In this document: positions 4,222 to 18,125 of the stretch, piece by piece
Position numbering within the stretch: position 1 is the first letter of the stretch
How the letters are laid out: every line of letters starts with the position of its first letter
Origin: Methanobacterium sp. UBA294
GTDB lineage: Archaea > Methanobacteriota > Methanobacteria > Methanobacteriales > Methanobacteriaceae
Reading direction: 5' to 3'
Assembly (NCBI GenBank): GCA_002494495.1
Contig: DACB01000006.1
Span: 56,951-88,950, forward strand
Length of the DNA: 32,000 bases
Translations under genes and position numbers: made by a program
Notes under the pieces: generated by a model
Databases searched by the model: none
The model's input: only the letters and a program-made list of their open reading frames with translations
Told to the model about the DNA's origin: nothing

Positions 4222-4268
4222 ATGAATTAATTAAAAAAAATAAGAAATAAGTTCCATAATTGGAACTT
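4222..4268 (-). terminator. hairpin plus oligo-T terminator after pan
   Basis: An 8-bp stem AAGTTCCA / TGGAACTT (4249-4256 / 4261-4268) with loop TAAT overlaps the pan stop codon. On the minus strand it is followed by TTATTTCTTATTTTTTTT. Confidence 0.4.
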
Positions 4269-5496
4269 AACCGTACATTACCCCTGCTTCCTTCCTCATC
4301 TCTTCTTCTCTTTCCATTCCGATTATTTTATCTACAGCATCCATGAAATCGTTCATGGTTACTACAGTTCGCTCTTCTCGAATGGCAAACATTCCTGCTT
4401 CGGTACAGATTGCTTTCAGGTCTGCTCCGGAAGCTCCTTCTGTGAGATTTGCGATGGTTTGGAGGTCAACTTCCTCTAGGGACATGTTTGTGGAGTGGAT
4501 TTTGAGTATTTCCATACGGCCAACTTCGTTGGGTATGGGTACTTCGATGAATCGGTCGAATCTACCTGGACGTAAGAGTGCTGGATCCAGGATATCTGGT
4601 CTGTTGGTGGCTGCGACGATTCCCACATCACCTCGCCCCTCGAATCCGTCCATCTCCGCGAGAAGCTGCATTAATGTACGTTGTACTTCGCGGTCTCCGC
4701 TGGTTGAGCTTTTAAGTCTTTTGGCGGCTATGGCATCGATTTCGTCTATGAAGATTATGCTGGGTGCTTTTTCCTTGGCGAGTTCAAACACGCCACGCAC
4801 CAATCGTGCTCCTTCCCCTATGTATTTTTTAACGAATTCTGAGGCAACTATTTTGATGAAAGTGGCATGGGTTTCCTCGGCCACTGCCTTGGCCAGAAGG
4901 GTTTTACCAGTACCTGGAGGACCGTATAATAGAACTCCTTTTGGTGGTTCTATTCCTATTTTAGTGAATAGTTCAGGCTTCTTAAGTGGTAGTTCTACAG
5001 TTTCTTTAATTTCAACTACCTGTTCTTCTAATCCACCTATCTGTTCATAATTTACACCTGGTTTATCTTCAACTTCCATACCTGTAACAAGGGGGTCTTT
5101 TTCAGAAGGAAGTACGTTGACTATGCTGAAGGTCTGCTGGTTTAAGGCCACTCTAGCTCCGGGCTCTAAAGATTTTTCATCTAAGAAACGTGAATATCCA
5201 ATAACAAAGTGCGGTCCGGTACTGCTTTTAACAACTACTTTACCATCGTCCAGTAATTCGGTTACGGTTGCTATTACCAGTGGTGGAGATCTGAATCTTT
5301 CTATTTCTCCTCTGAGAGATTTTACCTCTCTTTCAATCCGCATTTTTTCATTTTCAAGTAATACTTTATCCTTTTCGAGCTTCCTTACCTTCCACATTAA
5401 ATTACGTTTGGTTTTTGTATTTTCCTCCTTAAGGATTTTAATCTCTTTTTTTAAGTCTTCGATTTTTTTTAAAACGCTGGGAGACATGTTTTCCAT
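4267..5496 (-). CDS. pan: proteasome-activating nucleotidase (AAA+ ATPase, Rpt-like)
   Basis: 409 aa. It has an N-terminal coiled coil, Walker [16 protein letters not shown], Walker [10 protein letters not shown], and a C-terminal M-Y-G that fits the HbYX proteasome-docking motif. SD GGAGTGA lies upstream of the ATG. Confidence 0.95.
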
Positions 5497-5628
5497 GATC
5501 CTGGTTCACTCCTAATCTTTTTTCATTATTAAAAAAATTAATTATTTTAATGTGTTATATAGTCAACTATTATCCCTAATAATATTTAAATATTGAGGTG
5601 TAAAATTATACATATACAATTTAAAGGG

Positions 5629-6093
5629 ATGCCCATGAGATGCGAGATTTGTGGAAAAAAGTTACCTGGTAGGCCAGTTCGTGTTAAAATCGATGGTTCA
5701 ATAATGCAAACATGTAATGAGTGTTCAAAATTTGGTAAAGTACAAAAGGAACCACCAAGGCCAGTAAAACCAAGAACACCCCCTAGCCGTCTTAGATCAA
5801 GAGAACCATCATATGAAGTCTCTGAAGACTATAATACACTGATTAGAACAGCAAGGGAAAGAAATAATTGGTCAAGAGAGGAATTAGCGCAAAAACTCAA
5901 TGAAAAAACATCAGTAATTAATAGGATAGAATCTTCAAAGATGATTCCAGATATTAAGCTCGCTAGGAAGATAGAAAGACTTCTTAAAATTCAAATATTG
6001 GAAAAAATAGATGATGAACATCAAGAAGATAGCGTTTCATCAACCAAGGGCGGTACTACCATTGGTGATATAGCCATGATAAAAAAGAGGTAA
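5629..6093 (+). CDS. mbf1: archaeal multiprotein-bridging factor 1 (zinc ribbon + Cro/C1-type HTH)
   Basis: N-terminal CEICG-x19-CNEC zinc ribbon and a C-terminal HTH region (NWSREELAQKLNEKTSVINRIESSK). The ORF track starts at a TTG (5593). I prefer the ATG at 5629 (or 5635) immediately before the zinc ribbon. Confidence 0.8.
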   Translation: MPMRCEICGKKLPGRPVRVKIDGSIMQTCNECSKFGKVQKEPPRPVKPRTPPSRLRSREPSYEVSEDYNTLIRTARERNNWSREELAQKLNEKTSVINRIESSKMIPDIKLARKIERLLKIQILEKIDDEHQEDSVSSTKGGTTIGDIAMIKKR

Positions 6094-6103
6094 AAAGTTT
6101 TAT

Positions 6104-6454
6104 TTATTTTTTCAGGGAATAATAACCTTTAAGGGGGGTGAGTTTTCCATAAATATCCTTTAAATTAGAGTAATCTTTGTATTCGTCACTTATAACAACC
6201 AGATGTGCTGGAGGATGTATTTTCCTCACCTGTATTATACTTTTGGTGGTATCCTCCTCCACTAGCACCATCACTGCCTGTTTAGATTTCCTTTTAATTT
6301 TTTGTTTCAAAATACGGCCAATAACTTCATCTGCTAGTTCTGGAGGTACTATTTTAGGTTTGCCATTGATTTTAAGCTGGGCATGCCTTTCTATATCTGC
6401 CAGGGCATTCAGAATCTTTTTTTTATCATCTGCCCTGATTAAAATAATTGCCAT
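6104..6454 (-). CDS. hypothetical cytoplasmic protein (basic, 116 aa)
   Basis: ATG start with SD GGTGAT 7 nt upstream. That SD overlaps the stop codon of the upstream 424-aa gene, which ends 10 nt away. No TM helix and no motif recognised. Confidence 0.55.
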   Translation of the reverse strand: MAIILIRADDKKKILNALADIERHAQLKINGKPKIVPPELADEVIGRILKQKIKRKSKQAVMVLVEEDTTKSIIQVRKIHPPAHLVVISDEYKDYSNLKDIYGKLTPLKGYYSLKK

Positions 6455-6464
6455 GGTCTATAAA

Positions 6465-7739
6465 TCACCGTTTTTTCATAAATGAAGTGATCAATGTGCT
6501 TCTAAATAGTACTAAAACTACTAAAATTAACCCTATTGCAGTCTGTAGATTTCCCACAATATCCAGCAATGTGGAGCTGATGGGCAGATTCCATGGTGGT
6601 GATGTTCTACCGCCGCCTAGTGGTGTGAAATAAACTCCTACCTGTTTGGAATTTTCCCTGATATTGATATCCTTGGGTTCCACATGGTTTACACCAATTA
6701 AAAGTCCACGGTCAATGGCAGAGTTAATTGATTGTGCAATTGCGTTAGCGTTGAATCCATTTTTGTTAACCGAATATTTAACAACTTCTGATGTGGTGGT
6801 AGCGATACCGGGCTGGTCTGTTCCATAGGTATTAACCGTTGCATTAGTCGGCGAAATAGTAATTGCGGTTTTAAGAACATCATAGGCATGAGCTGTCTTC
6901 AATGGATTACCATCCAGTGGACATGAGCTGTAACTTTCAGCTGCTGGATATGCCACACCCCATCCACATTCAGGGTCGTATTTACTATATGGCTCATTCA
7001 TGGGGAAACCAGGCTGGTTTACTTCAGTTGGTGTGAATGTATCTCCAGTGGTAATGGAAGATACCAGGTTAATTGCTCCTCCACCGTGGTTTTCATTGGC
7101 CTCCACCGATACCTTTTTAAAGACATCTCCCATTATTTCTGTGGCGGAGTAACCATCCCTAATCTTTTCACCGATCATCACTGCCGTTTCTCTTCTTATT
7201 ACTTCGGCGTCTCCACCACTAGGATTGCTTGACGTGTGTCTTAAGTGGATTATCGCGCCTTTGGTACCTGCTGGCAGGACAGCAAGCCCGTTTCTGTGAG
7301 GAGATACCATGATGGTTCCATCATCAGCTACAGTTACCACGTATACAGAGAAATCCCCGCCTACAGCAGCCCCTATGGTTGGACCACCAGCCATAATTCT
7401 TATTCCTTTATAATTTGAAGCTGCAGTTACAGCACTCGATGGTGTTTCATTATTTTTAAACCTTTTGATAGTATCCACAATAGCCCCTAACCTATTGGTT
7501 TCGTTCATTTCTGCACCACCAGATAGAACTGCAAATTTATCTTCCGGAGAGAATATGAAGGTGGATTGAAACATATTGTTGGCGTAGGACATACTACCTG
7601 CAGCTGCACCGTTAGGATCCTGACCTGTGGGGTCAGATATGATGATAACGTTTAAAGTGGCAGCTGCGGTGTTCATGGCCAGTGAGACTGTCACCAGTAA
7701 GACCATGATTTTTAAGATTTTTATCCGGTTGATGTTCAC
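6465..7739 (-). CDS. uncharacterised extracytoplasmic protein with N-terminal signal/anchor and C-terminal TM anchor
   Basis: 424 aa. The N-terminus is MNINRIK plus a hydrophobic helix. The C-terminus is AIGLILVVLVLF...FMKKR, so positive-inside topology places the ~370-aa G/A/T/S-rich domain outside. It has only two Cys, 18 residues apart (CGWGVAYPAAESYSSC), and three N-x-S/T sequons (NET, NET, NAT). The GTG start overlaps the TGA stop of the upstream gene (GTGA). Confidence 0.7.
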   Translation of the reverse strand: MNINRIKILKIMVLLVTVSLAMNTAAATLNVIIISDPTGQDPNGAAAGSMSYANNMFQSTFIFSPEDKFAVLSGGAEMNETNRLGAIVDTIKRFKNNETPSSAVTAASNYKGIRIMAGGPTIGAAVGGDFSVYVVTVADDGTIMVSPHRNGLAVLPAGTKGAIIHLRHTSSNPSGGDAEVIRRETAVMIGEKIRDGYSATEIMGDVFKKVSVEANENHGGGAINLVSSITTGDTFTPTEVNQPGFPMNEPYSKYDPECGWGVAYPAAESYSSCPLDGNPLKTAHAYDVLKTAITISPTNATVNTYGTDQPGIATTTSEVVKYSVNKNGFNANAIAQSINSAIDRGLLIGVNHVEPKDINIRENSKQVGVYFTPLGGGRTSPPWNLPISSTLLDIVGNLQTAIGLILVVLVLFRSTLITSFMKKR

Positions 7740-8158
7740 TTCACCACCACTGTTGAGAAATCTTCGATAACATTGATGGTTACTATGCCTGTTACTTTAT
7801 CCACCTTAACATCCACGGCTGTTATAGGATATATTTGGGTACCTGGAATTGAAGAGTAGGATACCGCGGTTTCCGCATTTTTTATTGCACCCTCAAGGGG
7901 TACCTTTCGCTTGGTGGTAACCAGTGTATCTCCCTGAATATAACTTCCAGATCTGAATCCTACATCTGCTGCCATAGTTTTAATTGTAGTTGTAGGTACG
8001 ATGTCATTTCCTTTAACAATCACTCCTGCAATGGGAACACCTTGTGTTGTGTCATCAGAGGAGGCGTAAGACACATAGATCATAAGCCGGCCTGAAACAA
8101 TCAACATGAAGGCCAACATTAGGATGATTAATGTATCTCTTCTTATTTTTATAAACAT
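7736..8158 (-). CDS. bitopic membrane protein with a POTRA-like extracytoplasmic domain (tentative)
   Basis: 140 aa. MFIKIRRD is followed by one TM helix and then ~100 aa with the pattern I-x-G-V-I-V-K-G-N-D-I-V...V-T-I-N-V-I-E. This resembles FtsQ/DivIB/BamA POTRA repeats at pattern level only. SD GGTGA lies 8 nt upstream of the ATG. Confidence 0.6.
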   Translation of the reverse strand: MFIKIRRDTLIILMLAFMLIVSGRLMIYVSYASSDDTTQGVPIAGVIVKGNDIVPTTTIKTMAADVGFRSGSYIQGDTLVTTKRKVPLEGAIKNAETAVSYSSIPGTQIYPITAVDVKVDKVTGIVTINVIEDFSTVVVK

Positions 8159-8221
8159 CCTGTTTTCACCATTAATACTCTAATATGTGTTAATATTAAA
8201 TTGTATTTGATATTTAAGTTT

Positions 8222-8248
8222 AAAAAAATTTTTGTAGTTTTTAACTAC
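8222..8248 (-). terminator. hairpin plus T7 between the Mur ligase and the downstream trio
   Basis: Stem GTAGTT / AACTAC (8234-8239 / 8243-8248) with a 3-nt loop. On the minus strand it is followed by AAAAATTTTTTT. Confidence 0.3.
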
Positions 8249-8417
8249 GAATAATATGGATATATCCTTTTTTTGAGGATTTATTGTATCTTCACTATTA
8301 ATGTTTTTTCTTATAAATAAATTTTCTATACAATATGGAATGGTATCTTTATATATTAACTTTGACCTTGCTTAAATAAGTTAATTTTTTACAGGCTTTG
8401 TTTAGAATTAATTGATC

Positions 8418-10010
8418 CTATGGTGATGCTACAATTTTCCGGATTTCTTCCCGGAATTTTAATGCCGCTTCTCCAATACAAACCACAGCCTGAACATCAT
8501 ATTTCAAGGCTGTTTCAAGCCCCTGGTTGATCTGTTCTAAATTAGCTCCTAGGGTTCCCTTTTTAAATTTCTTAGGATAGGTGGTTGTTAAAATTATTTT
8601 ATCAGATACTGATTTTCCTTTCTTTATCAAGTTGTCTGCTACTTTCCTTGAATAGTATGAGGCTGGGATCACATAGTCAGCATTATCAAGGCTTTTGTTT
8701 AAAATGGCAATGTTTCCTCTTTCTCCTGACTCTGAAGATACAGTGATGACCACGGCTATGGTGTTATAGATTTTCTTTAATTCCTGGAGCACGGTTCCCA
8801 CACCATCGGGGTTATGGGCATAATCAACTATGATAGTTTTACCCTGATATTCTCCTATGTAGTCCAATCTACCTGGAACTCCATTAAAAGATTCAATATT
8901 ACTGATAATTTTTTCAAGGGGTATTTTGAAGAATTCAAATGCCGCAGCTATTGCCCCTAATATGTTGTAGATGTTATGGAGACCGATAAGGGGATTTATC
9001 ACCTCCACTACCTTTTTTTTAGCATGTAAGGTGAAACTGTTTTCCTTTATATCAGTGGCCAGATAATGAATTGCCGGTTTTTCAAGACCACATATGCATT
9101 TGTAATCTCCCATTCCGGAAATAGATTCCATTACTGGTATTTCTCTACCGCACCAGCATAGTTTATTATTAACAACACCTTTTTTAAGACTTAATTCTTC
9201 ACTTGATTTCACTCCAAAGGTGATAATATCTTTATCCTTATAATCTGGAATCTTTGATTCAATTAACCCCCACAGTGTTGGATCGTCACCATTAACTATT
9301 AATTTTTTATCCTTAAGATAGTCTACAAATTCTCCTTTTATTCTGGCATATTTCAGGAAATCATGATCATCATGCATGTGGTCTGGGGTGATGTTGGTGA
9401 TTATTCCACAGTCTGGTTGGGAGCGTTCAATTACAAAACCCAAATCCCCTGGATTTCCAAATGTCCCTGTTTCCAGAACAGCCACATCTCCATTTAAACG
9501 GCACTGAAGTGGTGGAATGTATTCAATATTTCCCTGCAGATCTTTAAATCCGTGCTCTGCTGGTTTTAAACCGGAATATCTACAGATATGCTTTAAGATA
9601 GATACTGTGGTGGTTTTACCATTTGTCCCGGTGACACAGAGCACTGGCTTTCCAGGTTTGATGAATCTAAGAATATCTTCCACTTCAATAAGTTGAAATT
9701 CGTCTTTAAATGTTCGATCCTTTAATTCTTTATGGAGAATAGATTCCACAGGTAAACTGGGAGGGGTTATGATGTAATCTGAAGTGTTATAAAATGTTTC
9801 TGGATGGCCGCCAAGATAGAGTGGAATACTGTAATCATCTAAGGTATATTTAAAATTACATTCTCTTTCTGCCTTTGAATCAGTACCTGCAACTTTAAAC
9901 CCATTATCGGAGAGTACCCGGATTACCAAATTGCCCACCACTCCGCAAACACCGATGACTCCAAATACGTCGCTACTTGAGTAGTTTCTGTTGTTTGATT
10001 CTTTATCCAT
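8418..10010 (-). CDS. Mur ligase family protein (pseudomurein peptide ligase paralog) with Cys4 zinc-ribbon insertion
   Basis: 530 aa. It has a MurD-like Rossmann N-terminus (VIGVCGVVGNLVIRVLSDNGFKVAGTD), P-loop VTGTNGKTTT, a DHMH/ITNITPDH central-domain motif, and a C-terminal-domain DYAHNPDG. The insertion reads CWCG-x17-CICG. SD GAGGAAAT lies upstream of the ATG. Confidence 0.85.
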   Translation of the reverse strand: MDKESNNRNYSSSDVFGVIGVCGVVGNLVIRVLSDNGFKVAGTDSKAERECNFKYTLDDYSIPLYLGGHPETFYNTSDYIITPPSLPVESILHKELKDRTFKDEFQLIEVEDILRFIKPGKPVLCVTGTNGKTTTVSILKHICRYSGLKPAEHGFKDLQGNIEYIPPLQCRLNGDVAVLETGTFGNPGDLGFVIERSQPDCGIITNITPDHMHDDHDFLKYARIKGEFVDYLKDKKLIVNGDDPTLWGLIESKIPDYKDKDIITFGVKSSEELSLKKGVVNNKLCWCGREIPVMESISGMGDYKCICGLEKPAIHYLATDIKENSFTLHAKKKVVEVINPLIGLHNIYNILGAIAAAFEFFKIPLEKIISNIESFNGVPGRLDYIGEYQGKTIIVDYAHNPDGVGTVLQELKKIYNTIAVVITVSSESGERGNIAILNKSLDNADYVIPASYYSRKVADNLIKKGKSVSDKIILTTTYPKKFKKGTLGANLEQINQGLETALKYDVQAVVCIGEAALKFREEIRKIVASP

Positions 10011-10422
10011 TGGATTTCCTCAGTTCTAAGTATGTTGATTAATTTATAATGAGTGTTTTTTAAATATTTTATCTCTTTAGATTTTTTGAATTGATTTTTT
10101 GTTTTATAGGAATAATGTAATTTTGTTATTAAAATACATAATGATTTTCGTTTTATAATAGTCTGTTGTGGTTTTGAACTGTTAAATTAAGTATAAAGGT
10201 TTAAATATGCTATTTTAATGATATAAATGGAGTAACATTTAAATTGCAGTAAAGGGACTCAAATAATATCTTGCTGGAGAAAATATTTATAACGATCGGT
10301 TCTAGAAAATAGGGAACATTACTAAGATACAATGTATAAAAAAATAAACTGGATGAATATGCAATTATAAATACATGGATTCAGATAGATTTGGAAAAGC
10401 TTCGTTTTAATCTATAATATAC

Positions 10423-12240
10423 CTATTCTATAACTTCCAAAGTATCAGTTTTTATTTTAAGGTCCTCTAACTGATTTTCAGCAGATGATTCAGTGGAATA
10501 TGGTAATATTTGCCCTTTTATAAATGGTTTTAAACTGTTTAATGATTTTATATTTTCCAGTGCTGTTTTCTGCCATATTTCAAGCCAACCATGGGATGGT
10601 TTTTGGATCTGGGATATATTGCTGCCAAGATGTTCCTGCCACAAGGAATTTCGAATTTTTTCTACTTCTGAATTTGGATACTTACCCAGTTCTGGTAGAA
10701 GAATGTTGAACTCCATATTTCTATGGAATTTTCTATTGAAAAAGCCGGGAAGTTCGTTCACATGGGTGAGTGATGAACCATCAAGATTAGCAGTCCCCAC
10801 AGTAGCCCATAGATCGTCGACAACAGCGAGCTTGGTGTGCACATATATTCTCTGTATTTTAAACTGTTTATTTTCCCAGCCTGTAGACCATAAAGTGAAA
10901 AATCCAATTTGGGGATGGTTTAAATTATCTTCATATGATCGAATCCCTAATTTTTTCATGCACTCCTCCTGGCGATTTTTATAGATGGGAATATCTGGAT
11001 TCTGATTCAATACCACTATTATCTGCAGTTCATTATTTTCTTTCAAGGCGTTTTTCAGTGCCATTATTATGTTGCTGTTGGTGAAGAACTGGTTTTCAAT
11101 ATATATGAATTCCTCTGCTTTGGCAATGGCTTTTCTGTAGGCCTCAAATATGCCCAGTTCCCCTTTTTTATTAAATGTGCCTGGTGTAATTGATCTGGCA
11201 ATCTGAACAGGATAGTTCCCGTTAACTGTTGATGATGGCCGAAGTTTTAGCATGCTTTTTCCCTGATACCCTTCTTTTGCAATGTAATTCCACATTTGGA
11301 TAAAGAATTCTTCAGTGTATTCAACTGATCTTCCTTTTATTTTAATGGATACATCATGTGCTGGCCTGCCTTCACGCCGGGAGTCGTTAATTAAATGTTT
11401 AGATGTGTCCCAGTACTCCTGTTTAAAGGGAGATCCAATTACATATGCTTCTTCACCGTCCCGAATCATTACCTTGGAATGCATCACGAATATTTTATGG
11501 GCCTTGAATTCACGTACTTCCACTCCACTTCCTTGGAAAAATTCAAGGATTTCCTGGTAGCTGTCCGGGATGATCAGGTTTTCGTTAAGAATTATCTTTA
11601 CATCCACACCCCTATTACCCGCATTTTTAAGGGCATCGGCCATGTACTCCTTGGGTTCACTGTTTGAGTTAAATGTTGCCAAGAAGTCTTTATTGAATTC
11701 AAATTGAGTGAGGTACAAGTAGGATTCTGCTTTATTAATTGATTGCACTAAACTTTCCAGTTCTACCTGGTTATCAATCAATACCTCCAACTGATTGTCT
11801 AATGTGAATCTACTTTTATCCGAGCCCCCTAATGTAACATACCATCCTTCTGCCCAGTTTCGTGGGATGATGATGTCTCCAACCTTTTTTACAACTTCAT
11901 CCACAGCTTTTATGGTATCTGTCTTGTAAAGTTCTGATGAATTCAGGGTATCCTTAACAACCACCCAGATATCTGGTTTATCGTCGAAAATATTTTTATA
12001 TTTACTGGGGGAATATTTTATATTGTAGTATCCTTTTTTATCTGTTTTTGATTTACCTAGCTCATAGTCCTTTTTTATAGGGATAGGTGAATATTTTTCA
12101 GTAAATTTAACTATGGGGTTTTCCTGTATTTCTCTTTCTACACTTCCAGCGCCTTCTGCTATTACAATCAACCCTCCGAGGGGATTTCCTTCTTCATCCA
12201 GTATTCTACCCTTAATCCCCCTGTTTAAAGAATTTTTCAT
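10423..12240 (-). CDS. phospholipase D superfamily protein, two HKD motifs, N-terminal beta-sandwich (carboxypeptidase-regulatory/transthyretin-like) domain
   Basis: The two HKD motifs are HSKVMIRDGEEAYVIGSP and HTKLAVVDDLWATVGTANLD. The N-terminus reads GRILDEEGNPLGGLIVIA...KTDKKGYYNIKY. No signal peptide or TM helix. I place the start at ATG 12240 (SD AGGTGA 5-6 nt upstream). The GTG at 12249 used by the ORF track lies inside that SD. Confidence 0.85.
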   Translation of the reverse strand: MKNSLNRGIKGRILDEEGNPLGGLIVIAEGAGSVEREIQENPIVKFTEKYSPIPIKKDYELGKSKTDKKGYYNIKYSPSKYKNIFDDKPDIWVVVKDTLNSSELYKTDTIKAVDEVVKKVGDIIIPRNWAEGWYVTLGGSDKSRFTLDNQLEVLIDNQVELESLVQSINKAESYLYLTQFEFNKDFLATFNSNSEPKEYMADALKNAGNRGVDVKIILNENLIIPDSYQEILEFFQGSGVEVREFKAHKIFVMHSKVMIRDGEEAYVIGSPFKQEYWDTSKHLINDSRREGRPAHDVSIKIKGRSVEYTEEFFIQMWNYIAKEGYQGKSMLKLRPSSTVNGNYPVQIARSITPGTFNKKGELGIFEAYRKAIAKAEEFIYIENQFFTNSNIIMALKNALKENNELQIIVVLNQNPDIPIYKNRQEECMKKLGIRSYEDNLNHPQIGFFTLWSTGWENKQFKIQRIYVHTKLAVVDDLWATVGTANLDGSSLTHVNELPGFFNRKFHRNMEFNILLPELGKYPNSEVEKIRNSLWQEHLGSNISQIQKPSHGWLEIWQKTALENIKSLNSLKPFIKGQILPYSTESSAENQLEDLKIKTDTLEVIE

Positions 12241-12359
12241 TTTTTTCACCTTTTAGTCCATGGGCATTAAAAAAAAGAACTTACATATTATTGAGCAATT
12301 AATTAGATTATGGTTGGGAAGTATGAGAAGATTATTGATTGTTCCTAATTAAAATCCTT

Positions 12360-12548
12360 TTAAGTGGCTTTTTCTATCTCTTCTAGATAAATAGTTTCTA
12401 TTAACTCTGCTCCTCCATTTTTAAGAACTTTTTTAAGTGATTCAGAAGTAAAAAATTCTTTTGCTTTCTGCATATTTTCCCAATCGAAAATGAGCACAAA
12501 TTCATTGGCATTTTCTGAGTTACGATAGAGGATTATTGGTATGTTTTT
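12360..12548 (-). pseudogene. start-less remnant resembling the C-terminal half of an ABM/ferredoxin-like (antibiotic biosynthesis monooxygenase-type) domain
   Basis: My own translation of the minus strand gives KNIPIILYRNSENANEFVLIFDWENMQKAKEFFTSESLKKVLKNGGAELIETIYLEEIEKAT*. This open frame is bounded upstream by TAA and has no start codon before the internal Met. The NEFVLIxxWEN pattern is typical of ABM-domain proteins. Confidence 0.35.
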
Positions 12549-12765
12549 TTAAATATTTACAATTTTCCAATGTTAAAAATTATTAATAGATTATTCAAAA
12601 GTGGACAAATAAGATATATTTATGAAAATATGCGCAAAAAATGTTATAAAAACGGTTCCTTGTAATCTCTCTACATAAATAACTGGTTCCAATCCATAGA
12701 ATGTACAAGATTAAAAATTAAAAATAAAGAATTTTAAGCACTATTATATTACTTTAATGATTCAA

Positions 12766-12780
12766 AGCCAAAAAAACGCT
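12766..12780 (-). terminator. oligo-T tract downstream of the 475-aa Mur ligase
   Basis: The minus strand reads CAGCGTTTTTTTGGC, about 50 nt after the stop at 12827. Archaeal terminators are oligo-T tracts. Confidence 0.35.
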
Positions 12781-12826
12781 GAGATGTATTCCGATCATCA
12801 ATAAAAATAATATTATATAGTCTATT

Positions 12827-14254
12827 TTAATTAACTTTTTTTTTACAGCCTTCTTCCAGTCCCTGTATCATCTTAGCTTTAAGATCATCATAATTGGTTA
12901 TGGCCCCTGGCCCTACGTGTATAATGGTGTCTCCTGGGTTTGAAACTTTTATGGCCATTTCTCCGGCAATTACCATGTTTTGGACTGCTATCTTTTGACA
13001 TTCTTGATTTTTAACACCATCCAACACTTCCTGGGCAGCATCCATATTCACTCCTCCCAGTGTTTCGTTAAAGCCACTGGAGATTATTGTATCAGCATAT
13101 TGGCCTATTACTTCTCCCACTTTAAATTTATCACGTAAAGTGGTGGTGTCCGGATTATCCACCAGAACAATTAATTTTTCATCTTTAAATTGTTCCAATG
13201 TTGAAATCAAGCCTTCGGGTACGAAAGCTGCATCAAAATGAACTTCTCTACTGCAGTATTTTCCCAGATATTCCAGATGTCCGGAGATACCCGGAAATTT
13301 ACTTAAACCGTCCATTATATCTTTTTCATCAAGGCCATAGGATAGGGCAGCAGCAGCTCCAGCCAGGCTGTTTTCAAAGTAGTATCCATTCAATTTAAAC
13401 CTGGTTTTAAATTGGCCAGTGTAGGTATTCAGGTTTAAAATGTTCTTATATTGGTTTAAATCATAAGTTACAGTTATATGACTGTTATCCAGCTTGCCTG
13501 CGATTTTACACTCTTTTTGGGGGCAGTAGTAGATCACATCATCTCGCAATGGTTCCAGATATTCATGGCAGCTGGGAGTGGAAATTAATATTTCACTGGA
13601 TTTTGCAATGAAAAGCTTTCTCTGGGCATATTTTTCCAGTGAGTCCTCAAATTCATCAAGGTGTTCAGGAAAGATATTGGTGAGCACACCTATCTTCAGT
13701 TTAACATGGGACATTAGCCGGGATGTTCCATGGGGTAGTTCAAAAACAGCTACATCATTTTCATGGTGGTAATTCTGGATTATTCCGTCAATAATTACTT
13801 CGCTCAGTAGATTTCCATGGCGGGATGAACATTTCCATACCTTGTATCCGGCTGTGTCCAATATACTGGCTATAATATGGGTGGTGCTGGTTTTGCCCAG
13901 TGTTCCAGTGACGCCGATTATGTCAATATCTATTAAATCATCAATTATATGGGATATTTCTTGGTGTTCAATTACTTTTATATCGCTCTGGGTGATTAAA
14001 TCCCTTACTAGGGAATTCTGGGGGATGTTAGGTGATAGATATACTGAATCTAAAGTTTCCACATCATCGGGAGAATCTCGACCCAGACTCAAAGATACGC
14101 CTTCTTTTTCCATTTGAAGGAGAATCTTCTGGTATTTCGGTGCAAATTCGTTTAATGTCTTTTGATCGGTAATTTGCACTTGATGCCCTATGTAATTTAA
14201 AATCCTGGCCACAGGACGGCCTGCATTTCCTGCTCCAATTACTGTCAATTTCAA
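12827..14254 (-). CDS. Mur ligase family protein (MurD-like N-terminus; pseudomurein peptide ligase paralog)
   Basis: 475 aa. It has a Rossmann N-terminus MKLTVIGAGNAGRPVARILNYIGHQVQITD, P-loop VTGTLGKTSTT, and central motif LTNIFPEHLD. The TTG start has SD GGTGA 7 nt upstream. Confidence 0.85.
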   Translation of the reverse strand: MKLTVIGAGNAGRPVARILNYIGHQVQITDQKTLNEFAPKYQKILLQMEKEGVSLSLGRDSPDDVETLDSVYLSPNIPQNSLVRDLITQSDIKVIEHQEISHIIDDLIDIDIIGVTGTLGKTSTTHIIASILDTAGYKVWKCSSRHGNLLSEVIIDGIIQNYHHENDVAVFELPHGTSRLMSHVKLKIGVLTNIFPEHLDEFEDSLEKYAQRKLFIAKSSEILISTPSCHEYLEPLRDDVIYYCPQKECKIAGKLDNSHITVTYDLNQYKNILNLNTYTGQFKTRFKLNGYYFENSLAGAAAALSYGLDEKDIMDGLSKFPGISGHLEYLGKYCSREVHFDAAFVPEGLISTLEQFKDEKLIVLVDNPDTTTLRDKFKVGEVIGQYADTIISSGFNETLGGVNMDAAQEVLDGVKNQECQKIAVQNMVIAGEMAIKVSNPGDTIIHVGPGAITNYDDLKAKMIQGLEEGCKKKVN

Positions 14255-14399
14255 TTAGATTTCACCTATTATTAATAATCATTTCTTAAAGAATCCTATT
14301 AAAAAGCCTATATTTTATTAATTCTTAATTATTAAGGATTTTTTATAGTATAAATAGATTGATAACATTTATTCATATTATTAAAAAAAACATTAATTT

Positions 14400-15833
14400 T
14401 CAATCCATTTCCTTTAAGATTCTGCTGGCAGGGTCCATTCCCTGAGCTCCAATTAATAAAATAGTATCTGATTTCTGGGATGATTTTAATGCATAATTAA
14501 GGGCATCTACCAGTTTATCAAAGAACTTATAATTCATATGATGGTCATTCATTATACTGGTGAAGACCTGTTTTTCAGAGGTTTTAACCTGATTTGCAGC
14601 GTTAACCACTTCCGAACTGCTGGTGATGATCAACTGGTGATGAACATCCTTGAGGCCCTCGGCAATTGCTTCTGCATTCACCCTGTTAATTACTTCCCCT
14701 CGTGAACCACGGATGGCAACGACTAAATGAATTTTACCTAGGGAAAGCTGAGCACAACTTTTAATGGTGGCTTTTATACTATCTGGGTTGTGGGCAAAGT
14801 CATCTATTATTATGGGACTTTCTGAGAGCACGGTAAACCTCCTGTCCAGAGGTTTATAGGATGAAATCCCGGTGACAATAATTTCAATGGGGATATTTAG
14901 TTTTAAAGCTGCTTGAACTGCTGCCAGAGTGTTCTGGATGAAATGGGGGCTTTTAAACGGTAGTTTATCTTCCCTGATGATTAAATGGCCAAAATTAAAT
15001 ATCCCACTTTGGGGTTCTATTGCCTCGTCTGTACGGTATTCCAGAGAGGAACCATCCCCATAATGGGAAATATCAATAGATGAGGGTAATGATTCTCCCA
15101 TCTTTTTAATCAGGGGGTCTTCATTATTTAAGATAACATATTTTCCCTGAAAATTCCTGATAGATCCTGAAACTTCCTGGTAAACATCTTCAATGGAGTT
15201 CACCAGGCCAATGTGATCCAATGATACGTTGGTCAGTACCACCATCTCCGGGTTTATGGTGGAGGTCATTAGATGTGCATGATCTTTCATAATACGATCC
15301 ATCCATCCCTGGACCTCAGAAACCTCAATTACCATGGCATCCATCTTATCTGGGAATTCTGCTATCTGCTTAGCAACCATGGGATCGATGAGAGTGTTGA
15401 ATTCTGATAATGAGTCGGTGTTGGTGTAGGTAGTATAGCCAGCTTCTTGGAGTATGGTGTATATCATATGGGTTGTGGTGGATTTTCCATTGGTACCAGT
15501 GACCACTATGCGCAGGGTGTCCCTGGCATATTTATCTATAGCCCATTTGAGGGCAAAAGCGTTGGCTTTTTCAATTTTATCAGTGATAATTAGGGGTAAT
15601 TTTAATTTTTTAGCTTGTTTAATTGCTTCTTTGGATATGTCCTGGGTGATGATGCAGGATACGCCCTTTTGATGTGCGATCTCAACACCTTTTTCATCTA
15701 TTCGATGCCTTATTACTGCATCACCTTTATTTGAATCCTTTAAAATATTGAATATGCCCTTGATGGGGACATCTTCACCAATAAACTCACCGTCAATTGC
15801 ATCGGTTATATTGGATGTTATTAAGTCATTCAT
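14400..15833 (-). CDS. Mur ligase family protein (MurE/MurF-like; pseudomurein peptide ligase paralog)
   Basis: 477 aa. It has a MurE/F-style N-terminal domain, P-loop VTGTNGKSTTT, central motif LTNVSLDHIG, and C-terminal DDFAHNPDS. Confidence 0.85.
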   Translation of the reverse strand: MNDLITSNITDAIDGEFIGEDVPIKGIFNILKDSNKGDAVIRHRIDEKGVEIAHQKGVSCIITQDISKEAIKQAKKLKLPLIITDKIEKANAFALKWAIDKYARDTLRIVVTGTNGKSTTTHMIYTILQEAGYTTYTNTDSLSEFNTLIDPMVAKQIAEFPDKMDAMVIEVSEVQGWMDRIMKDHAHLMTSTINPEMVVLTNVSLDHIGLVNSIEDVYQEVSGSIRNFQGKYVILNNEDPLIKKMGESLPSSIDISHYGDGSSLEYRTDEAIEPQSGIFNFGHLIIREDKLPFKSPHFIQNTLAAVQAALKLNIPIEIIVTGISSYKPLDRRFTVLSESPIIIDDFAHNPDSIKATIKSCAQLSLGKIHLVVAIRGSRGEVINRVNAEAIAEGLKDVHHQLIITSSSEVVNAANQVKTSEKQVFTSIMNDHHMNYKFFDKLVDALNYALKSSQKSDTILLIGAQGMDPASRILKEMD

Positions 15834-15881
15834 TTTTTAAGAATCCTACATTTTATTGTGACTTTGTTAATTTATTTGATA

Positions 15882-16958
15882 TTAAAAGAGTTTATAAAAA
15901 TATAAAGCGATTATACAAATTACTAAGGTTGTAACCCAGTATAGGGCTACAATTTTGCCTTCAGAAAGTCCTTTATAGTTTAATGTATGGTGCAAAGGTT
16001 CAACCGGTAATTTAATTACATGTGAACGGTGCAGGAGACTGATTACAACTGAAATTATGGGCACGGCTATGACTATCACTGCAAAGACTATCAAATCACC
16101 CAATATCGATGCGGATGCATAGAACCCTCCCAGTGCAAATGCGCCAGTATCTCCCATGAATATGGATGCGGGCATTCTATTATAAACTAAAAATCCAAAA
16201 CAAACACCAGCAAGAGCCATGAAAGCGATTGCTATATCAAATCGGCTGGTTAATAAGGAGAATATGGCACAAAACAATGAAGCGATTCCCATCACACCGG
16301 AGGCTAATCCATCCATCCCATCGATTAAGTTAACTGCGTTAATTGCACCTACAACACCGATGATGGCTATGGGAATAGATAGTAAGCCCATGTTGAAGTC
16401 GCTCAATACGAAAGGCACAGCGCCTGATACAACCAGGAATAGGGATACAAATATTTGAGAGAGAATCTTTTCCCTTTCACTTATCTCACTTTTAATGGGA
16501 AGTTCCCGGATAATTTCTATCTTTTCCTGTTTTATCAGTTTATCAACATCTTCTTTTGCTTTAGGAGTGGCAACTCTTGCTTCTTCACCAGGTTGAAGCT
16601 TCAATCGCCCTAATTCCACGACCTGTGATGTTACGTTTTTGGCCACCTTTTGAATTTCCTTGGTCTTGAGTCCAAGGAGGTCATCGAAGAGGCCTATGAT
16701 GGCAGCAGCTATCATAACCCCTGTGGTTATTAATAAAATTTGATTCTGAGAATAGATACATGCTATTAAGACAAGCCCCAGTATGATAGCCAATCCACCC
16801 ATTGTGGGTGTGCCCTGTTTGTGGCTGTGCTCTGATACTATGGGATTATCTGTGATGTTTGCACTTATGAGTGTTTTCCGGACAAATGGCGTGAAAAAAA
16901 CCACGGCTACGAATGCTATTATTAAAGGAATGAATATATAAGGATTTAAAAAATTCAA
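15882..16958 (-). CDS. MraY-like polyprenyl-phosphate phospho-sugar(-peptide) transferase (glycosyltransferase family 4)
   Basis: 358-aa multi-pass membrane protein. Motifs: TPTMGGL, the DD pair (LFDDLLGLK), and NAVNLIDGMDGLASG. TTG start. It lies 24 nt downstream of the ATP-grasp gene. Confidence 0.9.
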   Translation of the reverse strand: MNFLNPYIFIPLIIAFVAVVFFTPFVRKTLISANITDNPIVSEHSHKQGTPTMGGLAIILGLVLIACIYSQNQILLITTGVMIAAAIIGLFDDLLGLKTKEIQKVAKNVTSQVVELGRLKLQPGEEARVATPKAKEDVDKLIKQEKIEIIRELPIKSEISEREKILSQIFVSLFLVVSGAVPFVLSDFNMGLLSIPIAIIGVVGAINAVNLIDGMDGLASGVMGIASLFCAIFSLLTSRFDIAIAFMALAGVCFGFLVYNRMPASIFMGDTGAFALGGFYASASILGDLIVFAVIVIAVPIISVVISLLHRSHVIKLPVEPLHHTLNYKGLSEGKIVALYWVTTLVICIIALYFYKLF

Positions 16959-16982
16959 GTAATCACTACTCCGTTTCCAAGA

Positions 16983-18125
16983 TCACTTATCAATTACTTT
17001 AAGATTTTTAATGATTTTCAGGGATTCGTTCATATCCTGGGATCTTATGGTTATTCTACTGGCTTTTTCTGGGCCGTGTATGATATATGGTTTTTCTAGT
17101 GTTAAAATTTGTTTCTTCTGATTTTCATCATTTCTAAATTGTGGGTTCCTACTGAGACTTTCTGGTGGTAAGGGCATCTCCAACGCACAGTAATCCCTAA
17201 TTTCCCTTTCAATTTTTTGGGGATTCCATTCTCCAGTGGCCATATTTACCAGCTGATGCAGGGGGTTGATATTTGAAGCGCAGAAGGTTAAAAATCTAGT
17301 TCCACTAGGCCGTGTGTTTATCTCCAAGGTGTTTAATTCTCTTTTTTCAGGGTCATATATGAACTCCACTTCTGCTGTACCATTGGTGTCGAGTCTGTCT
17401 ATTATCTTCTTAGCATACATCCTGAGATCCTGGTTGTCCAGATATTCTATGTTCACAGGTGCACACCTGGTTTTTTCCAAGGGATGAGTCCCGATAAGAG
17501 TGGTTTCTCCTTTATACACACTCACTAAAGGTACCGATTTGTTATTCCATCTTAAAACTTCAACTGATATCTCCGCACCATTTACATATTCTTCCATCAT
17601 GGCTTGGGGGTACAGTTCCAAGTATTCTGTTAAATCATCTGGTGAAAGTGCAATTTTTACTCCAACTCCGCCCTGGCCTTCTTGTTGTTTTAAAACAACT
17701 GGATAATCTAGTTTCTCAGATCCTTTATTATATTGGTCTTTAGTTATTTCAGCATACACAGGGGTTTTTATTTTATTCTCTGCCAGGAATTTCTTGGTTT
17801 GGTACTTATCTGTTGAAATTTCTGTGGCCCTGTTTCCCGAGGCAACAACTGGTAGGTCATGATTCTTTTCCAATTCTTCCTTCATAACCGCCACCTCCGG
17901 GAGTGGTTTATCTATCCCTATTAGGGGGATTACAGCGTCCACATCATTTGAAAGTGCTATTTCTTTGGGTTTTTCCATTCCCCTAGGGACGATATGATAT
18001 TCATCTGCTAAATCTAGATTAGGTGAATAAGGATTGGATTCTGTTAAAATTGTTTCGATCCCCTTTGATTTAACAAAATTTGCAACTTCATTAAAGAGTC
18101 TTGCTCCGATAAATAAGATCTTCAT
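16983..18125 (-). CDS. ATP-grasp ligase (CarB/Ddl-like), first gene of the wall cluster
   Basis: 380 aa. Motifs: PVVLKQQEGQGGVGVKIA, MMEEYVNGAEISVEVL, and LEINTRPSGT. This is the ATP-grasp motif set. Confidence 0.8.
   Translation of the reverse strand: MKILFIGARLFNEVANFVKSKGIETILTESNPYSPNLDLADEYHIVPRGMEKPKEIALSNDVDAVIPLIGIDKPLPEVAVMKEELEKNHDLPVVASGNRATEISTDKYQTKKFLAENKIKTPVYAEITKDQYNKGSEKLDYPVVLKQQEGQGGVGVKIALSPDDLTEYLELYPQAMMEEYVNGAEISVEVLRWNNKSVPLVSVYKGETTLIGTHPLEKTRCAPVNIEYLDNQDLRMYAKKIIDRLDTNGTAEVEFIYDPEKRELNTLEINTRPSGTRFLTFCASNINPLHQLVNMATGEWNPQKIEREIRDYCALEMPLPPESLSRNPQFRNDENQKKQILTLEKPYIIHGPEKASRITIRSQDMNESLKIIKNLKVIDK

Follow-up and report, generated by a model that had tools for sequence, protein, structure and literature searches.

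Mfer763 and Mfer764 are two neighbouring genes of the archaeal pseudomurein pathway, analysed here in a 32,000-nt stretch of Methanobacterium sp. UBA294 (contig DACB01000006.1 of assembly GCA_002494495.1, positions 56,951-88,950; hereafter the window). They may encode a POTRA protein and a membrane-tethered threonine hydrolase of the N-terminal nucleophile (Ntn) type, respectively, acting together at the outer face of the membrane. A probability of roughly 0.45 is attached to this combined reading. The predicted Ntn fold of Mfer764, which together with an N-terminal threonine bared by signal peptidase would make it an enzyme, is the main new point relative to the literature, alongside the POTRA-like fold of its partner.

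Both genes belong to published families. The 140-aa product matches NCBIfam Mfer763_fam (NF053641) with 215.2 bits (cut-off 170; residues 1-137 on profile positions 1-137), and the 424-aa product matches Mfer764_fam (NF053642) with 615.8 bits (cut-off 560; residues 27-420 on profile positions 1-393). Their names and their status as pseudomurein-specific proteins of unknown function go back to Subedi 2021 (PMC10117817). Lupo 2025 (PMC11915815) recovered them independently in its cluster A as OG0001162 and OG0001472, "devoid of known domains" and, according to its table, with roughly one copy in each genome. The supplement of that study, in which the M. fervidus accession numbers are consecutive, identifies OG0001162 as Mfer763 and OG0001472 as Mfer764. 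The pair and its tie to the wall cluster are already known, and the "undescribed module" of a first-pass annotation of this DNA is in this respect a described one. A literature search returned no work connecting either of them to POTRA or Ntn folds, and the single paper containing both "pseudomurein" and "Ntn" uses the latter term as a viral gene label. The two genes and the parts of Mfer764 are located in the window as follows.

7736..8158, minus strand: Mfer763-family gene, 140 aa, ATG start (Lupo OG0001162; open reading frame list, NCBIfam)
6465..7739, minus strand: Mfer764-family gene, 424 aa, GTG start (Lupo OG0001472; open reading frame list, NCBIfam)
7659..7739, minus strand: predicted signal peptide of Mfer764, aa 1-27, ending in NTAAA (hydropathy, homologue comparison)
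7656..7658, minus strand: codon of Thr28, the proposed N-terminal nucleophile (conservation; strand 1 from residue 29)
7065..7658, minus strand: Ntn-hydrolase-like alpha-beta-beta-alpha domain of Mfer764, aa 28 to about 225 (predicted from model and Foldseek)
6615..7064, minus strand: predicted C-terminal extracytoplasmic region of Mfer764, aa 226-375 (model)
6489..6572, minus strand: C-terminal transmembrane anchor of Mfer764, aa 390-417, followed by a KKR tail (hydropathy; model helix 389-422)

Mfer764 was modelled from 34 sequences that are 58-81% identical to the window protein. The mean predicted local distance difference test score (pLDDT) is 76.7, with values mostly between 80 and 95 at residues 31-220. 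The first half of the model consists of strands 29-34, 45-50, 61-64 and 69-75 and helices 80-95 and 100-109. Next come four strands (113-119, 123-137, 143-155, 160-166), two helices (178-194, 199-214) and additional strands. The chain then continues through ~150 residues of a second region and a disordered linker, and closes with a C-terminal helix at 389-422. On the predicted model the first part forms the four-layer alpha-beta-beta-alpha sandwich characteristic of the Ntn superfamily. Its order of elements (S1-S4, H1-H2, S5-S8, H3-H4, S9-S10) is presumably that reported for proteasome beta subunits and HslV (Lowe 1995).

Foldseek, applied to the models of both proteins as the first-pass annotation had proposed, retrieved POTRA domains for Mfer763 and Ntn hydrolases for Mfer764. 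For the latter, eight matches in the PDB are significant, each of them a chain of circularly permuted human Taspase1 (E=2e-5 to 2e-4, prob 1.0). These permuted constructs were designed as single chains that start with the nucleophile, Thr234 (bioRxiv 10.1101/2020.11.26.400622). Since the permuted rather than the native enzyme matches best, the Mfer764 chain would likewise run nucleophile first. Weaker matches include proteasome subunits, HslV, the glutaminase domain of GlmS, DUF1028 and the isoaspartyl aminopeptidase beta chain, all of them Ntn folds. PP2C phosphatases as well as cupin and GH31 structures, the latter two unrelated, fall in the same weaker range. Among the named matches in the BFVD viral library, all weak, are a Gn_AT_II protein and proteasome-beta/Anbu proteins of phages. 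Taken with the predicted model, this makes it quite probable that Mfer764 has an Ntn-hydrolase fold. Two likenesses seen by eye were not used, as they have no statistical support: 'GEKYGGGAVNLVS' beside 'RDAYSGGAVNLYHV' of proteasome b5, and the placing of G74/G75 at mature positions 47/48 beside Gly47 of the oxyanion hole.

The N-terminus of Mfer764 reads as a classical signal peptide, with a basic n-region, an h-region of 12-15 residues and A-A-A, directly after which stands Thr28. Among the 120 homologues listed, position -1 of the cleavage site is Ala in 120/120, position +1 is Thr in 120/120, and position -3 is Ser, Ala or Val in 119/120. The same arrangement appears in the Methanopyrus-like protein once the reading frame is extended upstream, where ...LALVSGASA is followed by TFNMIVITDP and the annotated start is an internal Met. 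Position +1 of a signal-peptidase site is not usually under constraint. In Mfer764 it is an invariant Thr at the very place required of the nucleophile in an Ntn fold, directly before model strand 1 (which starts at residue 29), and no propeptide is predicted between the cleavage site and this residue. It is therefore proposed that signal peptidase creates an N-terminal threonine nucleophile in Mfer764, the invariance of the +1 residue being the strongest argument for this sequence- and model-based suggestion.

Conservation extends well beyond the cleavage site. An alignment of 43 Mfer764 sequences, including Methanopyrus-like, Methanothermobacter and Methanobrevibacter members, contains 64 invariant positions, among them A27, T28 and N30, and many of these are polar. 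The invariant polar residues comprise T28, N30, D36, N43, S49, S51, N55, R83 and R114, together with H165, N172, R182, R194, D195, T200, E216, N224 and K253. Two glycine motifs, G74-G75 and G219-G221, are invariant as well.

The hydrophobic segments that had been assigned to both ends of the 424-aa protein are confirmed by Kyte-Doolittle hydropathy at residues 3-34 and 390-422. Its three sequons (N-x-S/T at 79, 97 and 299) and its cysteine pair (258 and 273) are present as described, but the cysteines are not conserved. The window pair is a remnant of a zinc-ribbon-like CxxC...CxxC knuckle at aa 250-275 (6920..6990, minus strand), and 122 homologues carry 0 (22), 1 (10), 2 (64), 3 (24) or 4 (2) cysteines there. 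The full four-Cys knuckle is found in Methanobrevibacter-like and Methanopyrus-like members. Read from these sequences, the motif is a decaying one and not an essential disulfide.

The C-terminal anchor is unusually conserved, with G396, Q399, T400, A401, G403, L406, L409, V410, F412, R413 and S414 invariant. A sortase LPXTG signal was considered for this end of the protein, since L385-P386 is invariant and a transmembrane helix and KKR follow. It was rejected because there is no conserved Thr-Gly cleavage site: positions 4-5 vary (ISS, INP, VGS, VGA, INA). Two further database entries, P0397 (125 aa) and P0400 (244 aa), bear a near-identical anchor (LP[IV]D.NIL.ILGSIQTAVGIILILLV.FRSRLLKSF) on unrelated N-termini. 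These are probably chimeric metagenome assemblies; an anchoring module common to them and Mfer764 is possible. No other open reading frame in the window or in 83 loci carries an anchor of this type.

Mfer763 is the smaller partner. It has a single N-terminal hydrophobic segment at about residues 2-32 (Kyte-Doolittle), and its AlphaFold2 model, built with 35 homologues, reaches a mean pLDDT of 80 and 86-93 over a domain at about aa 41-130. An N-terminal helix (7-21) and a low-confidence linker precede this compact domain.

8090..8140, minus strand: N-terminal hydrophobic helix of Mfer763, aa 7-23 (model helix 7-21, Kyte-Doolittle hydropathy)
7757..8038, minus strand: POTRA-like domain of Mfer763, aa 41-134 (predicted from AlphaFold2 model, Foldseek and profile search)

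The modelled domain is composed of b1 (45-49), a1 (56-65), a hairpin (73-87), a2 (88-100), b2 (112-119) and b3 (125-132), that is, the b1-a1-a2-b2-b3 topology of a POTRA domain with an inserted beta-hairpin. Its best Foldseek match in the PDB is FtsQ of the FtsBLQ complex (8hhf_Q, E=0.011, prob 1.0), and the next 40 are mostly POTRA domains (BamA, Omp85, TamA, Toc75, CdiB), with E-values from 0.011 to about 2. When the family hidden Markov model was compared with all PDB sequences, the sole match was POTRA1-4 of Haemophilus influenzae BamA (6j09_A, E=4.6e-4, query residues 43-75), in which ISGVIVKGNDIVPTDSIKTNIANVGFRSGSYIQ aligns with ISDVKIKGNSIIPTEALKQNLDANGFKVGDVLI at the start of POTRA2. 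Pfam POTRA (PF07244) is the commonest weak match among family members, found in 2/35 with a best E of 0.13, under the gathering score. The model and these matches indicate that Mfer763 probably has a POTRA-like fold, and the resemblance first suggested from its sequence pattern is borne out. Its description as FtsQ-like holds at the level of the fold and fails beyond it. Membership of the FtsQ family was rejected because the chain stops after the POTRA domain: it ends 8 residues past the last strand, and neither the model nor Pfam shows the C-terminal beta-domain of FtsQ (FtsQ_DivIB_C).

The hydrophobic helix of Mfer763 may anchor the protein in the membrane or serve as a Sec/Tat signal peptide. 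Its h-region is nearly invariant (R6, R7, D8, T9, L10, I11, I12, L13, L15, A16, F17, L19, S22, G23), which is unusual for a signal peptide, and it is preceded by the invariant twin arginine Arg6-Arg7 (8138..8143, minus strand). At this point the Methanopyrus-like homologue has SRRNLAI. SignalP results in the Lupo supplement (PMC11915815) call a cleavable Sec/SPI peptide in four species and Tat/SPI in Methanopyrus. Thus the single helix of the first-pass "bitopic" protein is real, while its permanence in the membrane is uncertain. The twin arginine and the Tat call for Methanopyrus hint at export in the folded state, at least in some lineages.

Both proteins are confined to pseudomurein methanogens. 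For Mfer763, 553 homologues were found, and all source names given are Methanobacterium, Methanobacteriaceae or a euryarchaeotal metagenome-assembled genome; the protein search with Mfer764 gave 652. An exhaustive HMMER search against 1.84 billion cluster representatives yielded 62 matches, none outside the family and essentially two full-length clusters plus fragments. A genome scan with the 424-aa protein found 231 relatives, of which 80 loci were kept. Their titles are of Methanobacteriales type (Methanobacterium, Methanobrevibacter, Methanothermobacter, etc.) with one exception, a metagenome-assembled genome labelled 'Methanomicrobiales archaeon' (JBNGDB010000017.1). This contig has the full order of pMurC, Mfer763, Mfer764, the DUF356 gene that follows the pair, MBF1 and the proteasome-activating nucleotidase (PAN) at 63% identity, and its label or binning is probably wrong.

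The arrangement of these genes is not due to chance, because Mfer763, Mfer764 and DUF356 occur in identical order on one strand in 76/76 loci with enough flanking DNA for gene-order counts. They are usually followed by a convergent MBF1-type helix-turn-helix gene and PAN. The gap from Mfer763 to Mfer764 has a median of 16 nt, and its approximate value is negative (an overlap) in 23/76 loci, including the closest relatives L001, L002 and L010. Synteny with the Mur ligases, which the first-pass annotation had asked to see beyond this genome, is kept even in a Methanopyrus-like contig of 59% GC that carries one of the full-length HMMER matches, where the order is ATP-grasp, MraY, pMurE, Mfer763, Mfer764 and a polytopic membrane gene.

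From these features a mechanism can be proposed. Mfer764 would be exported by its Sec signal peptide and cut by signal peptidase after the A of [S/A/V]-x-A, leaving a mature chain that begins with Thr28. This residue would stand at the start of the first strand of a proteasome/HslV/Taspase-type sandwich, while the C-terminal helix would keep the protein at the membrane. As in other Ntn enzymes, the free amino group of Thr28 would activate the hydroxyl of this residue for attack on an amide bond, giving an acyl-enzyme. The substrate would likely be the pseudomurein stem peptide, because the pair is exclusive to pseudomurein methanogens, occurs at about one copy per genome and is tied to the genes that build stem peptides and link them to lipid. 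With water as acceptor of the acyl group, the reaction would trim or remodel the wall; with an amino group of a neighbouring stem as acceptor, it would make a cross-link. By analogy with POTRA domains of FtsQ/DivIB and Omp85, Mfer763 may be a small exported or anchored single-POTRA docking or scaffold partner. It could dock Mfer764 to other machinery, possibly via pairing of the two conserved transmembrane helices.

A catalytic role of Mfer764 on the pseudomurein peptide, suggested by the model, is given slightly less than even odds, and the narrower idea of a transpeptidase is doubtful. These archaea have yielded no orthologue of a murein-type transpeptidase or transglycosylase, and no enzyme is assigned to the cross-link (Subedi 2021, PMC10117817). 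The boldest version, in which Mfer764 is the long-sought cross-linker, cutting the terminal residue from the donor stem, and Mfer763 is a stripped-down FtsQ, a dcw relic acquired with the Mur ligases and linking the wall to division, would be a long shot.

Several results weigh against the reading of the pair as a POTRA protein and a threonine Ntn enzyme. The structural matches of Mfer764 are moderate (TM-scores 0.29-0.42, reaching 0.53 at most, root-mean-square deviation 6-8 A, shallow alignment), and PP2C-type phosphatases, which also have an alpha-beta-beta-alpha architecture, stand lower in the list at prob 0.2-0.25. At the level of sequence, Pfam gave no match of any kind for the window protein and 34 members, the family profile retrieved nothing of Ntn type from PDB sequences (just GH95 at E=1.3), and hhalign against the proteasome beta subunit of T. 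acidophilum (a query identical in 203/203 residues to 3c91_H) returned a prob of 0.15. There is no invariant Lys in the first 225 residues that could correspond to proteasome Lys33, and Mfer764 has neither the sequence similarity nor the Thr1/Asp17/Lys33 set of the proteasome beta/HslV family (MEROPS T1). The POTRA E-values of Mfer763 are weak too (Foldseek 0.011 to about 2; Pfam best 0.13). Transglutaminases have been postulated and favoured in the literature for the pseudomurein cross-link (Subedi 2021, PMC10117817; Lupo 2025, PMC11915815), and SignalP in the Lupo supplement found a signal peptide in just 2/4 Mfer764 orthologues. Many Mfer764 homologues have N-terminally truncated gene models that start at an internal Met in or after the signal peptide (L082 4396..5655 / P0352, P0024 and entries of 402-407 aa). 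Such truncation probably explains the SignalP result.

Among the alternatives, an Ntn-like but non-catalytic Mfer764 fares best, although it too is judged unlikely. Here the protein would be a scaffold or wall-membrane tether that, with its POTRA partner, organises the synthesis or division machinery in the manner of FtsQ. The strongly conserved transmembrane helix and juxtamembrane segment are in keeping with this, as is a partner with a POTRA domain, a module of protein-protein interaction. The absence of a Lys33 equivalent and of any sequence match to catalytic Ntn families points the same way, and inactive proteasome alpha subunits are also found among the structural matches. However, the invariance of Thr28 (120/120), of N30 and of many other polar residues and glycine motifs is the pattern typical of an active site, and conservation at position +1 of a signal-peptidase site is not normal.

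It could also be argued that both fold assignments are artefacts of moderate models and shallow alignments, the two proteins having no informative known relative. The alignments span only 58-89% identity, two of ten models stayed at pLDDT 36 and 56, TM-scores are low and the Ntn assignment has no sequence support. Yet a single fold dominates each list (POTRA in most of the top 40; Ntn in all eight significant and many weaker matches), core regions reach pLDDT 86-95, the profile match of Mfer763 to BamA POTRA2 is independent of the models, and predicted strand 1 of Mfer764 begins exactly past the invariant Thr of the cleavage site. Artefact is on these grounds improbable.

Even less likely is an action of the pair on the glycan or the lipid carrier, with Mfer764 as a PP2C-like phosphatase on the polyprenyl-diphosphate carrier or as a helper in glycan polymerisation or export. 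PP2C phosphatases (6ae9_A, 4da1 and that of Bodo saltans virus) do occur among the weaker Foldseek matches, Mfer764 is tethered near the membrane where lipid-linked intermediates reside, and the pseudomurein glycan polymerases likewise have no assigned enzyme (Subedi 2021). Nevertheless, the PP2C probability of 0.2-0.25 compares with 1.0 for Ntn folds, the invariant acidic residues (just D36, D195 and E216) are too few for the binuclear metal site of a PP2C enzyme, and the invariant N-terminal Thr would be left without a role.

The Mfer763/Mfer764 pair lies at the downstream end of a complete copy of the published "pseudomurein gene cluster 2", which an NCBIfam scan located on the minus strand of the window at 6465..18125. 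ATP-grasp/Ddl-like, MraY and pMurE genes are followed on one strand by Mfer763 and Mfer764, with pMurD1, a PLD-like insert and pMurC interposed between pMurE and Mfer763. The remaining features of the locus are listed below.

16983..18125, minus strand: ATP-grasp 'Ddl_archaea' (NCBIfam NF053643, above cut-off)
15882..16958, minus strand: MraY_archaea (NCBIfam NF053644, above cut-off)
14400..15833, minus strand: pMurE (NCBIfam NF053648, above cut-off)
12827..14254, minus strand: pMurD1 (NCBIfam NF053646, above cut-off)
10423..12249, minus strand: PLD-like gene (Pfam PLDc_2/PLDc)
8418..10010, minus strand: pMurC, pseudomurein peptide ligase with Cys4 insert (NCBIfam NF053645, 698 bits; Pfam Mur_ligase_M/C)
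7736..7739, minus strand: GTGA, overlap of the Mfer763 stop and the Mfer764 GTG start (sequence reading)
6104..6454, minus strand: DUF356 gene, 116 aa, ATG start (open reading frame list, Pfam)

The three packed minus-strand reading frames described in the first-pass annotation are all real. At the first junction the sequence is ...GTG AAG TGA, with the next start in GTGAAC, such that TGA and GTG have 4 nt in common; this GTGA overlap at 7736..7739 is a translational coupling of Mfer763 and Mfer764. At the second, AAA CGG TGA TTTATAGACC ATG, there are 10 nt from stop to ATG, and GGTGA(T) straddles the stop, which lies inside the Shine-Dalgarno sequence. The Mur-ligase gene upstream of the trio, also noted at that stage, is pMurC at 698 bits. 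An AT-rich spacer of 259 nt (8159..8417) separates it from Mfer763 and contains TATA-like stretches, e.g. TTAATATATAAAG and AAATTTATTTATAAG on the minus strand. Elsewhere this spacer measures just 30-90 nt, and in the Methanopyrus-like contig Mfer763 follows pMurE after 2 nt. In the lineage of the window the pair may have acquired a promoter of its own.

Between pMurD1 and pMurC lies a 608-aa protein with two PLD-type domains and weak NCBIfam matches to cardiolipin synthase and DISARM DrmC. It looks, from sequence comparison, like an insertion particular to this genome, because 0/80 related loci gave a tblastn match and the pMurD1 and pMurC genes of the closest relatives are merely a few hundred nt apart; the G+C content of the stretch is slightly lower (0.35). 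PAN (4267..5496, minus strand) and an MBF1-type zinc-ribbon/helix-turn-helix gene (5593..6093, plus strand) are conserved neighbours of the trio across Methanobacteriaceae. The position of PAN two genes from a protein with a predicted proteasome-like fold looks like coincidence, because Mfer764 is extracytoplasmic and a Methanopyrus-like contig (L082) has a membrane gene directly after Mfer764. This contig ends too early to reveal whether PAN comes next.

The third gene of the packed trio is of a different kind. Its 116-aa product matches Pfam DUF356 (PF04009) with 133.2 bits (gathering 29.9; residues 3-105 on profile positions 1-103 of 106). Kyte-Doolittle analysis detects no hydrophobic segment in it (max KD19 0.62), and it is basic, with 24 K+R against 14 D+E. 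No solved relative was found by sequence or profile, nor any NCBIfam match. Positions invariant in the family include H80-P81-P82-x-H84, R7, K13, N16, D20, R23-H24 and Y112, and the protein, small, basic and cytoplasmic, possibly binds metal or nucleic acid. A homologue 50% identical to it occurs in Methanocaldococcus indicus, flanked on one side by a PIN_5 gene and on the other by an unknown gene and then IleRS; Methanocaldococcus is a methanogen without pseudomurein. Because DUF356 has no hydrophobic segment and a homologue in this pseudomurein-free genus, it is not an envelope protein, and the "trio of envelope proteins" proposed at first comes down to a pair. Likewise, restriction to pseudomurein methanogens, expected for all three, holds for Mfer763 and Mfer764 (80 loci, 1.84 billion representatives) and fails for DUF356. 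DUF356 is a conserved Methanobacteriaceae neighbour outside the module, though it may be co-transcribed with the pair.

In the Methanopyrus-like contigs the gene downstream of the pair is not DUF356 but the polytopic membrane gene. It begins 1 nt past the Mfer764 stop (L082 5657..5848, L083 1354..1899) and is probably Lupo OG0000796. This membrane protein is a better candidate than DUF356 for a third member; its place is occupied in Methanobacteriaceae by DUF356. The gap from Mfer764 to DUF356 has a median of 57 nt. That all three genes form one pseudomurein-specific envelope module is very unlikely: DUF356 does come after the pair in the same orientation in 76/76 loci, 27 loci have gaps of 0-20 nt, and in the window its ATG is 10 nt past the Mfer764 stop with a GGTGA overlapping that stop, but the basic, non-hydrophobic protein, its relative beside PIN_5 and IleRS in M. 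indicus, the membrane gene in its place in the Methanopyrus-like contig and gaps of 300-2300 nt in 7 loci speak against it.

The extracellular steps of pseudomurein assembly (polymerisation, cross-linking and remodelling) have no assigned enzymes (Subedi 2021, Lupo 2025), and an exported pair encoded in the wall cluster is an obvious set of candidates. The reading of Mfer763 and Mfer764 as a POTRA protein and a threonine Ntn enzyme offers a concrete chemical hypothesis for two proteins previously without fold or mechanism. If true, it would represent a third, independent solution to wall cross-linking beside penicillin-binding proteins and L,D-transpeptidases, and a specific target against rumen and gut methanogens. 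Furthermore, a POTRA protein beside archaeal Mur ligases bears on the block transfer of part of the bacterial dcw cluster.

Comparison with known systems places these features in context. The window pair and the published Mfer763/Mfer764 pair are of the same families (above curated cut-offs), occupy the same end position of the ATP-grasp, MraY and pMurE cluster and have the same lineage restriction. They differ in that the window pair comes after pMurC, with pMurD1 and the PLD-like insert further upstream, whereas the published pair directly follows pMurE.

FtsQ/DivIB and Mfer763 are alike in their short basic N-terminus, single hydrophobic helix and POTRA-type domain (predicted in Mfer763) outside the membrane. 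Both are encoded directly after Mur-ligase genes, and FtsQ (8hhf_Q) is the top structural match. In contrast, FtsQ has a C-terminal beta-domain that binds FtsB/FtsL, whereas Mfer763, at just 140 aa, is without one, and it matches neither Pfam POTRA_1 nor FtsQ_DivIB_C. Mfer763 also has an extra beta-hairpin between the two helices of its model and an N-terminus that may be a cleaved signal peptide. Its gene, located after pMurC or pMurE, precedes Mfer764 and not ftsA/ftsZ, neither of which is nearby, unlike that of FtsQ in the bacterial dcw cluster. With the POTRA repeats of Omp85, BamA, TamA and TpsB, Mfer763 would have the b-a-a-b-b core in common, and its motif I-x-x-V-x-(I/V)-K-G-N-x-I-(I/V)-P-T...G-F aligns with BamA POTRA2 (E=4.6e-4). 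Unlike these proteins, it is a lone domain without a beta-barrel, in an archaeon without an outer membrane.

For Mfer764, the closest structural parallels are proteasome beta/HslV and Taspase1/type-2 asparaginase. The predicted four-layer alpha-beta-beta-alpha sandwich is common to them, as is the position of the proposed nucleophile, a Thr that opens the mature chain at the start of strand 1. Mfer764 differs in having no detectable sequence similarity to these enzymes and no Lys33 equivalent, in being extracytoplasmic with a C-terminal transmembrane anchor, and in an extra region of ~150 aa after the sandwich. Its activation is proposed to proceed through signal peptidase, in contrast to the autoproteolysis of proteasome- and Taspase-type Ntn enzymes. 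A parallel for such activation exists in periplasmic penicillin V and acyl-homoserine lactone acylases of the choloylglycine-hydrolase type in Gram-negatives, Ntn enzymes whose nucleophile is bared by removal of a signal peptide and not by autoprocessing. These acylases have a Cys nucleophile, are soluble and bacterial, and are unrelated to Mfer764 in sequence and substrate. Finally, penicillin-binding proteins, L,D-transpeptidases and the proposed pseudomurein transglutaminases would have the same role as that suggested for Mfer764, the formation of an acyl-enzyme on stem peptides outside the membrane, but they use a Ser or Cys nucleophile on a wholly different fold, where Mfer764 would use a Thr.

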